A stretch of DNA of 63,953 nt, filler included, from Thelocarpon superellum (taxonomy: Eukaryota): the NCBI GenBank assembly GCA_026025795.1. It is 3 parts of 3 records of this genome, joined end to end, with 100 filler letters (N's around TTAATTAATTAA, not from the genome) between each part and the next. Parts side by side here need not be neighbours in the genome. Positions count along the whole stretch, not along the records: positions 24,964 to 49,521 come from JAPEUG010000272.1; 2 more parts are not named here. One strand, given 5' to 3'. Made by a program: the position numbers and the translations under genes. Shown piece after piece: positions 2,930 to 43,600 of this stretch. Each line of letters opens with the position of its first letter. The first letter of the stretch is position 1. The notes below the pieces were generated by a model, which was given only the letters and a program-made list of their open reading frames with translations, made no database searches and was not told the DNA's origin.

Positions 2930-4072
2930 CCGGCACAAAGGATATGGGACGAGAGATGCGAGGGGAAAAGTGGTGGGGATACAACGGAAGTGCAGTAGGT
3001 ATTATGGCAGCGTGACTGCCTCGGCTCACTGGGGTTCTCGGAGTTGGGTCTTACCACGAGATCGACAACCTTTCACATCTAATGTACGGATGGAACCAAT
3101 CTTAAAGCGACAAAGTTGCCCCATGAATGCTGCCCTTGCTGTGATCAACTTGCTACGTGGGGTTGGAGGTGTGTGAAGACCGCCAATGTCAGGTGGATGG
3201 TGCGCGATGGTAACCACCAGGGTACGCACGCTGGTGGTGAGTCAACCGGGTTTGATCGGGGCTGGGCTTGGATAAAGGAGCTACCGATTACAACCAACGA
3301 CTACTCCTGTCTGGGAAGAGATGGCTCTCCCTGAAAAGGAGACCCGTCTCCCAGCTGGAAGGACTGTTTGACCCTCTGCTATGTTCCCTCACAGATGTTC
3401 TCGTCGAGTTGTCCTTGCTCACTCCAAAGGCCGACTTCTGCGCCGTATATCTCGCCGCCCTTGCAGTCGGTATCCTGGTGCTCCGTGACAGTCCCGATCA
3501 TCTTCCGGTGAATATCCTCGCTTGTTCCAAGAACAATCGGCCATTGAACTGCTCAAAGAGCCATCAGCTACAACGAGAGGTAATTCACTAGATCCGTGTT
3601 GGGAAGTTTGTTCGCCCTCGACCGGCTCCACTAAGCCTCTGGCTATTGATCAGCTCCATTGACCTTCTCCCAGCCGCCGACTTATCCCACCTGTCAGGCT
3701 TGTTACTTCGAGGCAGCTTGCTCATCTCAGCCGCTCCACTTCCTCCATCCTTACGTCTTTCTCTACTTCGCGACTCCACACCACCTTCTTCCTCTCGACC
3801 TTTCTCCACTCACCCACGAGACCTCGCAACACCTTTGCCTCTCTTTACTTTCTGATTGCTGACGACTGGTCGTCGACTGATCGCCCCTTGGTTCCGCTTC
3901 AAATTACGTTACCTTTCCAAGTACGACTTTAGATCCGCCTTCCTCGGATTGCATCTTGCCTCGAGGCCCTCCTGATTTCATCCTCGTCCGGTTAACGCCA
4001 TTCTATCTCTCGCCGGCTGAGCTCCGCTTCGCTCTCCCGCGCACCACAGCTCACGCTTTCGCCCGTGTGATC

Positions 4073-33958: not shown

Positions 33959-34239
33959 CGCGTCAACGTAATCCAGTTTGGTCCTAGTGGGGGCATTCGC
34001 TTCCACAAGCGCATGGTCTTCCAAATTTCCTCCACCCCTCCACCCTCATCAAGTCACAACGCACGGCGAACTTGACGGATCAGTCTCCGCTCAACTTGCG
34101 GTTAAAGTGATTGATTCTCTTGTTCAAAGGTGTCATCCCGTTGATCTAGACCAGTACGGATTCCCTCCTGCTCTGGGTTGGGACCGCGAGACTAACTGCT
34201 CAAGACAGTACACGAATCAATTTTGAGAGAACATTCACC

Positions 34240-34717
34240 ATGAAGCATCTCGCAGCTTATTTGCTCCTGGGCATCGGTGGCAACACCTCGCCGTCCGCGT
34301 CCGACATTAAGGAGGTTCTCGACTCCGTGGGAATTGAGGCGGACGATGAGCGACTAGACAAGCTTGTGTCGGAGCTCAAGGGCAAGAACATCAGCGAGGT
34401 AGGCGGGATGACTCGCAGCAGGTACAGCTGGAGAGAAAGATCAGCTAATCCGATGTCCAGTTGATTGCCGAAGGGTCCACCAAGTTGGCATCCGTTCCGT
34501 CGGGAGGCGGTGGAGGAGGCGCTGCTCCCTCCGGTGGCGCTGCCACCTCGGGTGGTGCCGCGGCAGAAGAGGAGAAGCCGGCTGCTAAGGAAGAAGAGAA
34601 AGAAGTTCGTATCCTACGTCTATCATCCGTCCGCGATGGTCCTCTTCGAACCAGGCTGATCAAATTCGTCCAATACAGGAGTCGGATGAGGACATGGGCT
34701 TCGGTCTGTTTGACTAG
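34240..34717 (+). CDS. rpp2: 60S acidic ribosomal protein P2, 3 coding exons
   Basis: [39 protein letters not shown]; Ala/Gly hinge; last exon [12 protein letters not shown]. Confidence 0.97.
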
Positions 34718-35149: not shown

Positions 35150-36030
35150 ATGGCTGACGCTGACTACGTGAGTGTACCCGTCGTCGTCCCATCCGTCGCT
35201 TTGCGTAATGAGCACCGGGCGAGCGTGAGAGTGGGCTCCATGCTGACGACCTTTACTACAGAACGCCGAGGAGGCAGCCGGTACGTGGATTCTTTTTCGA
35301 TCTCGAACCACCCTTGATCCCGACGAGATGGATGGGCTTACCTCGGCAACGATGTTTTTCTTCGAACGGAGAATCTGATACGTGTTCGCGGGGCGAAAAG
35401 GCTGACACGAGGACGTACCCACAGAGCTAAAGAAAAAGAGAACCTTCCGAAAGTTCTCATACCGCGGGATTGATCTCGAGCAGTACGTGACCGGCCCACG
35501 AGCCCCCGATCCTCCGGTTCCACCAACATGCATCCTTCTGAGACTAATGCATCGTCACCGTCACCATCAGACTCCTAGATCTCTCGTCGGAACAACTGCG
35601 CGATGTGGTTCACTCACGGGCACGACGCCGGTTCAACCGCGGCCTGAAGCGCAAGCCGATGGGTCTGATCAAGAAGCTGCGCAAGTCGAAGCAAGAGGCC
35701 AAGCCCAACGAGAAGCCGGACTTGGTCAAGACGCATCTGCGCGACATGATCGTCGTGCCGGAGATGATTGGCAGCGTGATTGGCATCTACTCCGGCAAGG
35801 AATTCAACCAGGTTGAAATCAAGCCCGAGATGGTCGGACATTACCTCGGCGAGTTCTCTATCTCATAGTACGTCTCCCTTCTGTCTGTTGTCTCTATCTG
35901 CCTTTCTCTCTCTTGCGGGAAGGCTTGCACACTGGTGCTCGTAAACTGACGCCATGATAGCAAACCGGTCAAACACGGCCGACCCGGTATTGGAGCAACC
36001 CACTCATCTCGATTCATTCCGCTAAAGTAG
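35150..36030 (+). CDS. rps15: 40S ribosomal protein S15 (uS19), 5 exons
   Basis: Spliced [108 protein letters not shown]. Confidence 0.97.
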
Positions 36031-40271: not shown

Positions 40272-40924
40272 TCATTCTCTCTCTCCCTCTTCTTGCTGAG
40301 CCCTTACTTTCCGCTCCTCCTCGTCCCGGTTTTGCTTCTCGTAGTGCTCGATGAGGGTGGTCAAGTCGCCGCCGCTATGTCCCGCGATGTGGTTGTAGGG
40401 ACTGCCCGTGTTGAAGATCCTGTGATTGGAACGATGAGTCCAAGACGCACGGCACGTCGTCTGGGCCAAGACTTACTCGGGAAACCTCAATTCGACCGTG
40501 GCATTCTTCCTCGAACTCTGGAACAGATTTCGATCGAACGCGGCCTGCTCGACCATCTTCGAGTGTAATGAGTTCCGTTGCTCCCACAACTCCTGGTAGT
40601 CGCTCCAGCCATCGATGAGACGTGTGAAATACGGCTCGGACCCGTCCGCGGGCTGGGAGAGCTTGTAGAGGGCGAGCGCGATAGGAATGGAAGCGAGACT
40701 GATGTAGAAGCCTCTCTGAGCGGCGTGACCGATGTGAGATTAGTTTCGTCCTTTGAATGAGGGGGCGAACGGGGAATTCATACGCCGAAGCTCTCGTTCA
40801 CCGGTGCAGCGTGGTGTTGAGAGTGGGCGCCATGTTCGGAGCTGGCGTGACGCCGAGCGGTATGCCGCACGTAAACACGGTTCTTAAGTAAGGAGGTCCT
40901 TCCAATTCGCCCGACGGCGGGCAT
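40272..40924 (-). CDS. NADH:ubiquinone oxidoreductase 17.8-kDa accessory subunit (fungal nuo-17.8-like), 3 exons
   Basis: Mitochondrial presequence ..ARRHASSEHGAH, spliced VNESFG/RGFYISLASIPIALALYKLSQP (TM), WEQRNSLHSKMVEQAAFDRNLF..ELRFPE/IFNTGSPYNHIAGH..IEHY. Confidence 0.85.
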
Positions 40925-41234
40925 CTTGTTCTGGCCTCGATGGAGGAATGTTCCCAGCAGCCTCAGCTTCATTCGTTCGACCGTCTCATCACTGTCCCGA
41001 GACGACACGCCCTGGGGTTGCTGTGCAGCTCGCAGTCATGCTTAGTCATGAATACTTGCCGAACCTCGAATGCCGAACCTCAGCTTCGTGTCCGAGCTTC
41101 CTGGCATCAGAGAGCTATCCTCTCAAAGTTCATTGACGGAGAGAAGGTAGATCTAATTGTTCATGCGACCGAGCACATAATGATCCTGTCCACTTGACCG
41201 TCGACGTGTGTTGGGGGGCATTCGGCCGACCGAT

Positions 41235-41705
41235 ATGAAACCATTCGCCACGACCCTCGCGCTCCTCATACATCTTTCCCTCACCTACGCCACAACACAG
41301 TCTCCCTTGTCCGCAGAGGATGTCGTGCCCAGCGAGAGCGATCAAGTTTGCGACTTGTCGAACCCTCAGGATTGCTTTCCCGCTGTGTTCATTCCCACCC
41401 TGGCCTTCCAGCGAATCCGAGAAGGTCAATCCATCCCGCCGGGACTCCACATCCGGCTCAATGTGCAGACGGGCGAGAAAGAGGCAAGGTTGAACGTCCC
41501 GTTGGTGGGGGAGGACGACGGTGCAAGTGCCAAGCTTTCCGTGGGCAGTGTGCTGGCGGAAGTTTCTCAACCAGTACATGAGGTGGACCATGTCGCCATG
41601 GGAGCGGAGCATCAGGCCGAAGGCGTCGAAGACGGTGTGTCTGACGGCGACAGTGGATCGCAGACAGGGATCATGTTGTCAGATGCACTCAAAGACGAAT
41701 TATAG
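41235..41705 (+). CDS. Sil1 N-terminal-domain-only ER protein (156 aa, signal peptide, C-terminal KDEL)
   Basis: MKPFATTLALLIHLSLTYA signal peptide; VCDLSNPQDCFPAVFIPTLAFQRIREGQSIPPGLHIRLNVQTGEKEARLN matches the Sil1 N-terminal motif; ends DALKDEL* 67 bp from the convergent gene. Confidence 0.85.
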   Translation: MKPFATTLALLIHLSLTYATTQSPLSAEDVVPSESDQVCDLSNPQDCFPAVFIPTLAFQRIREGQSIPPGLHIRLNVQTGEKEARLNVPLVGEDDGASAKLSVGSVLAEVSQPVHEVDHVAMGAEHQAEGVEDGVSDGDSGSQTGIMLSDALKDEL

Positions 41706-41772
41706 CATGACCTATGTGTCGTTGCCCTGCATTGCCTCCGCCACGTCCTGCTCGAGCTAGCTCCGTCGAACC

Positions 41773-43600
41773 TCACGACAGCGTCCATTCGTCCGAGATC
41801 TCGCTGGCGATACGCCGAAGTTTAGCCCACTCTACCTCCATCGCTTCGGGGCTCAACAGCTGTCGCGTTCTGTATTCCTGGCTCGACTCCATGTCCACCT
41901 TGACCTGCTCCAGCTTCCTCTTCACTTGGAGGGCAAATAGGGTGTTAGTCCCATGACTCTTGTCGACATTCTCTTCGACCTCTTTCAGCAACGCCCACAC
42001 GACAAGCCCGTACTCGAGGCGATACTTTTCGAGGCCCTTGACTTCTTCGGGCTCCGCCTCAGAGGCCTGAGCCACGAAGATCATGAGCCTCGCGAGCGCC
42101 CACTTGTGTATCACTCGCATTGGATGCCACGGTAATGGGTACAGAAGAGGATCAGTGTAGAAATACACTTCCAATAGCCGGGCTAGACCTTGGATCCACT
42201 GGTGGGCAACCACGTGTGCGGTGCTCAATTCCAGACGGACTGTCGGCCATGGTTGTCGTGAGACAGGCCAATTTGGGCTGGCTTTCTTCATCTGCCTAGA
42301 GAGCTTCAGATATCGCTCCACCCGCGGCGGCTCCGGCGACAAAGCCTGGATATCCTCGTCGATCTCGGCTAAAATGCTTGCTTCCAGCTTTCGGATCGCT
42401 GGAGTGTTCATCGTGTCGTTGCCCACATCTGTAGGGGAAGATGGGCCCTGAAGGCATCGAGCGCAGGCACACTGGAAGAAATATCGTGCTTTCAGTTCCT
42501 GTTGACGATGGTGATATGGTTGAGTGCCGTCGATATAGCTGATGGTGATTTCTTCATCTTTCTTGATTGACTTAAGTGATCGTAGGACCAAGCGGGCTCT
42601 GTCGAAGGTGACAATTGCGTTGGGATCGCATGAATGGTTCGCCGATGAGACCAGGGTGTCCAGACAAGAGCCAAGCGGGTCGAAAGTGGCCGTCACAAGA
42701 GTCATGGTGTTGATTTGTATCTAGACAATGACACGAGACGTGAGGGAGAGCAATCTTTCCGACCAAATGCGCAGAAAAGAGGGACGTACCCGACAACAGA
42801 GGTCAACGACAAAATCTTCGCTGAAGGTGGTCTTTGAGAATCTATGTGCGCCTTTGCTCCCCCATGAGATGTGCTCCCATGGCTCTCCACCCGCCTTCTC
42901 TAGCTCTTGTCGATGGGAGCGCAGTCGTGAGATCGACTCCCACTGCTCATCCGATAAGGCATGGTTTTTGTGCATAAGAAGCAGCTGGGTGACCATCCGG
43001 ATCGAACACGGCAGGATGTTCGGCTTTAACGCAGAAAACATGTTGCATTCATATTTGTGGTGTCGTTTCCACGCTTCACTCTGGCATTTCTGCGAAGTCG
43101 ATGAATGTCAGCGCTCCGGTCACAGACCAGTCAGAGGGACGAAACAGAGGCAGCGGTGATCTCGATAGCGCCGTCATCGATAGCACAAGCAACCATGCCG
43201 CGGATCGATCCTTTGCAACACTTCGAATGGTAGACAAATGGTCATTCAGACTCAAGGAAGGACAGATATCGCACGGCAAGACCCCAGTAAAGGTCCCCGT
43301 CTGGCACTATATCGAAGACGAGCTCACCTTTGAACAATACCGAACCACGTTGCAACCCGCACATCTCTTGAGGCTTGGTGGATATTCTTCCAAAGAATCC
43401 CAACCTACACTGCCAGGGCCCTCTTTCAAGCAGTAGGAACACCATGCGTGGAGACGTACGGTGGACAAAAGGGTCAACAACGGTTGGCCTAGCGAAAGGA
43501 CCTGCTGTCCAGGGCCGAGATCAGTGGCCGCGAACAGCCCAACCTGGTCAGCGCCGACGGCTGAGGAGCCGGTGTAGACTGCGTCATAGGCATCTGCCAT
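41773..43600 (-). CDS. SET and MYND domain lysine methyltransferase (SMYD-like), 3 exons
   Basis: GLFAATDLGPGQQVL (SET-N), CSYC..KRCAGCNVVRYCSK/KCQSEAWKRHHKYEC (MYND), ANHSCDPNA, EEITISYID, post-SET YFFQCACARC. Confidence 0.92.

Follow-up and report, generated by a model that had tools for sequence, protein, structure and literature searches.

The reading frame at 41235-41705 in Thelocarpon superellum (assembly GCA_026025795.1) encodes a short protein, here called mini-SIL1, that resembles only the N-terminal part of the BiP exchange factor SIL1/BAP. It raises the question of whether the N-terminal two-cysteine module of this family can be kept as a protein of its own once the armadillo-repeat (ARM) exchange domain has gone, or whether the frame is a relic, one part of a split or duplicated system, or an artefact. 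What the SIL1 N-terminal region does is a matter of debate: work in yeast treats it as a BiP reductant, work in mammals as a partner of the BiP lid that couples the release of client and nucleotide. To our knowledge, this region has been studied so far only while attached to the exchange domain. A natural, conserved ARM-less SIL1, if true, would be a ready-made separation-of-function form, that is, a natural allele; should the module bind or modify BiP alone, it would be an autonomous regulator, and should it not, another partner would be indicated. All positions below refer to the window, the whole stretch of DNA that was analysed (63,953 nt, about 64 kb).

Translation of the plus strand from the ATG at 41235 to the TAG at 41703-41705 gave 156 codons with no interruption, and the parts of the product are listed in Table 1 together with the neighbouring features. 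The sequence-only reading of this locus had described an uninterrupted frame with a hydrophobic leader, a C-x7-C pair, a downstream motif, an acidic tail and a terminal KDEL followed by a stop, and all of these were borne out on 41235-41705 (+). The N-terminus of the protein is MKPFATTLALLIHLSLTYA, with Kyte-Doolittle means over 11 residues of 1.2-1.95 across residues 1-10, and the full-length SIL1 N-termini aligned with it are hydrophobic too. The two cysteines are C39 (41349-41351) and C47 (41373-41375), the motif downstream of them is FPAVFIPTLAFQRIREGQSIPPGLHIRLNVQTGEKEARLN, exactly as it had been quoted, and residues 91-156 (66 residues, KDEL counted in) contain 15 D+E versus 2 K+R. Mini-SIL1 has the ER-targeting feature of the SIL1/BAP family, a hydrophobic N-terminus plus a C-terminal KDEL, and on these two elements it would be expected to reside in the ER. 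Among 123 full-length relatives the C-terminus is of the -EL type in 66, of the -DEL type in 27 and [KHR]DEL in 13. The length of the frame is uninformative by itself, because an antisense ORF of 160 aa with an ATG start (41130-41612, minus strand) overlaps it; this second ORF had no support in the searches run and is best seen as a probable shadow ORF, of the kind that GC-rich coding DNA gives rise to.

Table 1. Features of the mini-SIL1 locus and its surroundings, with positions in the window
Feature	Position	Strand	Basis
Mini-SIL1 CDS (P0001), 156 aa, stop codon counted in	41235..41705	+	Profile of 123 full-length SIL1, E 7e-37
Putative signal peptide, residues 1-19	41235..41291	+	K2, core FATTLALLIHLSL, possible cleavage after TYA (inferred)
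SIL1 N-terminal module, residues 37-89, including C39 and C47	41343..41501	+	54-column profile, AlphaFold2 (AF2)
Acidic, probably disordered tail, residues 90-152	41502..41690	+	pLDDT ~47-59
C-terminal KDEL, tetrapeptide of the ER-retrieval type, followed by TAG at 41703-41705	41691..41702	+	Translation
Intergenic region, putative bidirectional promoter with divergent neighbour	40740..41234		ORF map, tblastn
Divergent upstream neighbour, two ORF pieces	40275..40739	-	Conserved beside full-length SIL1 elsewhere
Spacer between convergent stops, 67 bp	41706..41772		ORF map; bridged by contigs of 3 runs
Last large exon of convergent SET/MYND gene	41773..42705	-	Pfam SET, E 2.3e-9

A phmmer search with mini-SIL1 against 1.84 billion representative sequences returned 533 hits at E<=1e-3, 120 of which reached E<=1e-10. 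Among the 150 matches listed, almost all were 360-520 aa long and similar to mini-SIL1 via their N-termini only. Those looked up were either named 'Nucleotide exchange factor SIL1' (Coleophoma, Lepraria and Erysiphe in UniRef, as well as JGI entries) or were unnamed models from Bacidia, Phylliscum and Sclerophora. In the reverse direction, the profile of 123 full-length SIL1 proteins matched mini-SIL1 with an E value of 7e-37, over profile positions 14-101 of 436 only. Both results confirm the proposed homology to the SIL1 N-terminus. A word-indexed protein search with mini-SIL1 gave 2 of 37 candidates at near lengths and 0 of 704 at longer ones; the latter null is a failure of sensitivity, because the exhaustive phmmer search later found full-length matches.

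The exchange domain, as had been claimed, is missing from the ORF, and it is missing from the entire window as well. Pfam assigned 0 families to mini-SIL1 at E<=10, the SIL1 family PF16782 and the Fes1/HspBP1 family PF08609 included. PF16782 was found on a full-length Coleophoma protein (P0006, 402 aa; residues 158-334, E 5e-13) and weakly on a full-length Phylliscum protein (P0109, 438 aa), and PF08609 was met solely as a precomputed label on P0003, a 270-aa animal-type match. When the 123 full-length SIL1 proteins were compared with the window by tblastn, 127 HSPs fell inside the mini-SIL1 ORF and the best E value outside it was 0.016, and when the SIL1 profile was run with filters off against all six-frame ORFs of the window, the next match after mini-SIL1 had an E value of 3.2. 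A tblastn cluster at 3382-3471 on the minus strand (E 0.016-0.31, four queries) was put down to chance, as the profile did not recover it. Within the window, the 41 kb that precede mini-SIL1 and the 22 kb that follow it contain no ARM-domain sequence. A word-indexed search with the ARM region of P0109 matched only P0109 itself among 7996 candidates and is uninformative about Thelocarpon or the source organism. Because mini-SIL1 lacks the ARM exchange domain, which defines the family, it is not a SIL1 exchange factor and, judged by position and module, should be called a SIL1-derived, ARM-less protein; with this domain missing, nucleotide exchange on BiP is expected to be absent.

An apparent loss of this kind could be produced by a collapsed deletion, by a chimeric join, or by a first exon whose later exons were missed, and the first of these had been named in the sequence-only reading as an outcome that would undo it. 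Nothing was found in favour of any of them. An independent k-mer assembly of the probable source run yielded a contig of 1879 nt that spans 40386-42264 with 0 differences at a depth of ~160. Contigs from two runs of another study, labelled as moss metagenome, cover 41154-41305 and 41601-42144 or 41601-41992, and thereby connect the last 105 nt of mini-SIL1 through the spacer to the 3' end of the SET gene. As contigs of the source run and of the second study both bridge the 3' end of the gene, the junction is real and a collapsed or chimeric assembly at mini-SIL1 is very unlikely.

With regard to missed exons, it had been argued that a convergent SET/MYND gene leaves no room downstream, and this holds: the gene, with its ORF at 41773..42705 on the minus strand, ends 67 bp off, its zf-MYND domain lies further 5' (Pfam, 43307-43600 minus, E 1e-4, at the cut-off), and none of the reading frames of the window contains ARM-coding DNA. 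For comparison, 24 SIL1-type loci were obtained by scanning metagenome contigs; 14 of them (L001-L014) are full-length and ten (L015-L024) are pieces of the module. In L001-L010, full-length SIL1 is a single ORF covering profile positions ~7-415, with two exceptions: in L003 the contig stops at profile position 286, and in L009 the ORF was read as two pieces. Each of L011-L014 contains a single intron close to profile position 53. Full-length loci therefore do not as a rule carry an intron that separates module and ARM domain, and a stop at a short distance past the module is not explained by the usual ORF-caller artefact. Taken over all its forms, we give the artefact explanation only the slightest probability.

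The moss-metagenome contigs also give a view of a related sequence. Compared with 40300-43000 of the window they are 95-100% alike, with 11 substitutions and one 1-nt deletion at 41213; in the parts of the ORF that they cover, the single change is 41260 C>T, which gives A9V in the leader; the codons for KDEL and the stop codon are the same as in the window. Given this degree of likeness, a close strain of the source fungus seems to live in moss-associated communities. The source-run contigs break at 40347/40386 and at 42264/42294, where the loose ends are CTGTCTCTTATACACATCT and its complement. We take CTGTCTCTTATACACATCT to be a transposase library adapter, and the breaks look like a contig artefact rather than a feature of the genome.

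The surroundings of mini-SIL1 were then compared with those of the full-length loci. The result showed that 13 of 13 full-length loci with upstream DNA (L001-L009 and L011-L014; tblastn E 1e-18 to 3e-24) have the divergent neighbour immediately upstream of SIL1, and that in 7 of those 13 the uS19 ribosomal protein gene (35548-35865) and two more ORFs of the window are found in the same order. Since its upstream neighbours match those of full-length SIL1 loci, mini-SIL1 is, on the evidence of gene order, the positional orthologue of SIL1 and is located at the ancestral SIL1 locus. On the downstream side, the SET/MYND gene occurred in none of the full-length SIL1 loci, and the downstream genes of those loci are not in the window. 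A synteny break 3' of mini-SIL1 would fit loss of the ARM part through rearrangement or deletion, which is weak evidence on its own; downstream neighbours vary even between groups of full-length loci, and their absence at mini-SIL1 therefore says little.

The upstream block is common to L001-L003, L005, L006, L008 and L009, which belong to several distinct fungi, with its order kept; its members are uS19 (93-96% identity), the ORFs at 34150-34461 and 33590-32598, and the divergent neighbour at 40739-40275, to which Pfam assigned no family. In the putative promoter at 40740-41234, the motif CANRNTGKCCT, which we take to be a UPRE-like consensus, is absent; the whole window holds 4 sites versus 2.5 expected.

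Gene order also bears on whether mini-SIL1 stands alone. The genome might contain a full-length SIL1 paralogue or, after gene fission, an ARM-only gene, in which case mini-SIL1 would be an accessory or regulatory protein or one half of a split gene and exchange activity would have been kept. A gene-splitting rearrangement would leave a synteny break on the 3' side of the ORF such as the one seen, which is no direct support, and three observations speak against this explanation: mini-SIL1 occupies the ancestral SIL1 locus, the 41 kb upstream and 22 kb downstream are devoid of ARM sequence (with which a distant second locus would be compatible), and the corresponding model of Thelocarpon impressellum is annotated as a 140-aa protein. 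We consider this explanation unlikely.

If mini-SIL1 is instead a SIL1 gene from which the ARM domain has been lost, the state of the remaining module bears on retention or decay. The conserved N-terminal two-cysteine module of the SIL1/BAP family is present. In a 54-column profile of this module, mini-SIL1 scored 93.4 bits, compared to 78.6-111.2 bits (median 100.9) for the 123 full-length proteins that trained the profile, which corresponds to their 22nd percentile. Of the 19 columns conserved at >=85%, 18 are kept in mini-SIL1, and the remaining one shows a conservative change of Y48 to F. In maximum-likelihood (ML) trees of 152 rows, the terminal branch of mini-SIL1 was 0.56 versus a median of 0.51 on 91 columns, and 0.21 versus 0.22 on the 54 module columns alone. 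By these measures the module is not decayed and has an ordinary branch length, and mini-SIL1 is probably a retained domain-loss variant of SIL1.

In both trees, the rows nearest to mini-SIL1 were three further short proteins: P0002 (148 aa), P0004 (163 aa) and P0015 (140 aa). P0015 (KAI9824237.1) comes from the gene annotation of a Thelocarpon impressellum genome bin, where it lies on a contig of 284 kb; P0002 and P0004 were called as ORFs on contigs 1273 and 4207 nt long and may be incomplete. The four short proteins formed an exclusive clade with SH-aLRT values of 90 and 89 (82 and 80 for the inner three), which rests on 54-91 columns and stays below 95; its stem is long (0.73), and the full-length row nearest to it is the Phylliscum demangeonii protein. 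Short rows made up 16 of the 152 in the set, and the other short rows that were read (P0005, P0021, P0023, P0050 and P0094) are visibly fragments of the full-length type, P0021 sharing one 90% cluster with a 450-aa protein. All four members of the clade keep the hydrophobic leader and both cysteines, and their module scores lie at the 11th to 39th percentile, in the lower half of the full-length range. The module of mini-SIL1 is 76% identical to that of P0002 over 54 columns (~50% over the matched stretch), and divergence of the short relatives from mini-SIL1 in the module ranges from 24 to 50%. Retention of leader and module over such divergence speaks for purifying selection, if the ARM loss is ancestral to the clade. 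The earlier claim that the locus is not decaying thus receives support of an indirect kind, through a module score in the full-length range, an ordinary branch and the exclusive clade of four short proteins.

A look for equally short orthologues ending in KDEL or HDEL in related fungi had been suggested; three short relatives of 140-163 aa do exist, but none ends in a clean KDEL. Among the four, KDEL is the end of mini-SIL1 only, and the set P0002/P0004/P0015 ends in KDELR, REEI and LLTR, which speaks against 'purposeful ER retention' being something that the clade has in common. Ends in -EI instead of -EL were seen in P0004, P0008 and one other full-length SIL1 (REEI, KSEI and SREI); such ends could reflect either an alternative retrieval signal or noise in the gene models.

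The four short proteins have tails that cannot be aligned with one another, and that of mini-SIL1 has no significant similarity to full-length SIL1 beyond about residue 103-113. An internal deletion that kept the ancestral C-terminal tail was considered and was unsupported by profile or blastp (four tails against the 123 full-length proteins, best E 0.03-0.14, scattered). By eye, 'GWWQRIRHAW' in P0004 resembles a 'GCWEHRI' stretch of full-length proteins, and neither profile nor blastp backed this likeness. As the tails are without similarity to full-length SIL1, the view of KDEL as a kept ancestral C-terminus is unsupported. GC3 is 0.58 in the tail of mini-SIL1 versus 0.70 in its module, a difference that is not decisive.

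N-terminal modules without an ARM domain can also be dead. In L015-L024 (e.g., L016:5950-6110 and L022:5940-6110), ten lichen-type metagenome contigs of up to 450 kb, the SIL1 N-module only was detected, and both a frameshift and an in-frame TAG interrupt it: '...SPGLHVRLNIATG*KEARLNVPEEG' ('TG*KEARLN'). No ARM sequence was found within 6 kb of these modules, and the neighbours from the window are absent there. They look like pseudogene relics in AT-rich surroundings, for which RIP as the cause of decay is a guess. They resemble mini-SIL1 in that the N-terminal module alone is detectable, whereas the mini-SIL1 ORF is intact and the relics are frameshifted, carry the in-frame TAG and have other neighbours. 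The existence of such relics in other fungi means that a module without an ARM domain can be plain decay.

On this basis, mini-SIL1 itself might be a non-functional relic: the ARM domain would have been lost by rearrangement or deletion, the 5' remainder would be unexpressed or useless and not yet decayed, and KDEL would be a leftover or a coincidence. The dead modules of L015-L024, the confinement of synteny to the upstream side with the downstream genes of full-length loci absent from the window, the tail with its lack of detectable homology and its lower GC3, and the want of a clean KDEL in the short relatives are all in keeping with such a state. They are opposed by the intact frame, leader, cysteine pair and 18 of 19 conserved positions, by the ordinary terminal branch, and by the three short relatives, whose retention of leader and module at 24-50% divergence is hard to explain without selection if the loss is ancestral. 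In addition, a C-terminal KDEL is improbable as the product of random read-through (1e-4 to 1e-5 as a rough estimate, not computed), and the downstream synteny differs between full-length groups as well. We regard a relic as improbable. If mini-SIL1 were a relic or a spare copy, the locus would be a case of ordinary domain loss.

The explanation that we prefer, and hold to be somewhat probable, is that mini-SIL1 is the SIL1 positional orthologue without an ARM domain, kept by selection in a small ascomycete clade, which would include the Thelocarpon impressellum bin and have Phylliscum as its nearest full-length sequence. Such retention suggests, though it is no proof, that the module is able to function in the absence of the nucleotide-exchange domain. 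A wider claim, put forward tentatively and with rather less confidence, is that an ascomycete lineage made up of the source organism, the Thelocarpon bin and two uncultured relatives discarded the SIL1 exchange domain and kept the two-cysteine module as an independent protein of the secretory pathway over the long term. If this is true, the module would be able to act autonomously on BiP or some other ER partner, with no need of an ARM domain, and the lineage would run its ER with an exchange factor of the Lhs1/GRP170 type only.

Under selective retention, mini-SIL1 would enter the ER and be retrieved by the KDEL receptor, and its N-terminal module would act on BiP like the N-terminal domain of full-length SIL1/BAP. 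The module might contact the substrate-binding domain or lid of BiP and favour client release, or compete as a pseudo-substrate; thiol-disulfide exchange by C39/C47 is a possible, less likely activity. Nucleotide exchange on BiP would be supplied by an Lhs1/GRP170-type factor or by another gene outside the window.

Structure prediction with AlphaFold2, from an alignment of 110 sequences, gave a confident model for the module only, with pLDDT values of 94-96 for residues 41-80, 91 for residues 81-90 and 78 for residues 31-40. The model predicts four short strands (residues 37-39, 47-49, 71-75 and 82-86) and a leader helix at residues 7-14, and pLDDT is ~50 from residue 91 to the end. Mini-SIL1 had 0 matches in the PDB by sequence at E<=10, the module model had 0 Foldseek matches in the PDB at E<=0.001, and the ESM Atlas gave no usable match. 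A wide VIA-align search returned one row, a 37-residue spider toxin with a Z of 2.1, which was taken as meaningless.

Comparison with known systems shows how far mini-SIL1 follows them. With full-length fungal SIL1 it shares the leader, the C-x(7-8)-C pair, the pattern CYP..F.PT..FQ.I..GQ.IPPGLH.RLN..TG.KEA.LN (47-56% identity over the matched stretch), a C-terminus of the -EL type and the same upstream neighbours; unlike these proteins, it has lost the ~250 residues of armadillo repeats that bind the BiP ATPase domain and perform exchange. A search of the literature, which was thin, found no report of an ARM-less SIL1.

In yeast Sil1, C52 and C57 reduce oxidised BiP, according to Siegenthaler et al. 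(2017; PMC5358974), where the H163E variant, unable to dock on BiP via the ARM domain, is described as 'ineffective as a NEF and a reductant' and the lhs1 sil1 double deletion is said to be inviable owing to the missing exchange function. Mini-SIL1 is like the yeast reductant described there in having an N-terminal cysteine pair ahead of the ARM position, and differs from it in that the yeast pair is C-x4-C and that of mini-SIL1 C-x7-C, and in that the ARM docking surface (H163) is absent. Of the features of a thiol oxidoreductase, mini-SIL1 thus has the cysteine pair and lacks the docking domain needed in yeast; by analogy, this docking requirement would count against a redox reading of mini-SIL1.

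For mammalian BAP, the N-terminal and C-terminal domains are both described as contacting the BiP lid and promoting the release of nucleotide and substrate (Rosam et al. 2018, as cited in PMC12203945), and the 'release domains' of other Hsp70 exchange factors bind the substrate-binding domain weakly (~10 uM for Bag3; PMC9346034). As presented in these two sources, such regions resemble what is proposed here in that they lie outside the exchange domain, contact the Hsp70 substrate-binding domain or lid and promote client release; they differ in being tethered to an exchange domain that gives most of the affinity, whereas the mini-SIL1 module would act untethered. The BAP N-terminus is, moreover, unstructured according to the review among these sources, whereas the mini-SIL1 module is predicted by AlphaFold2 to be folded. 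The animal-type match P0003 has the motif FIPT..WQ..GQSIPPGLHIRL in common with mini-SIL1.
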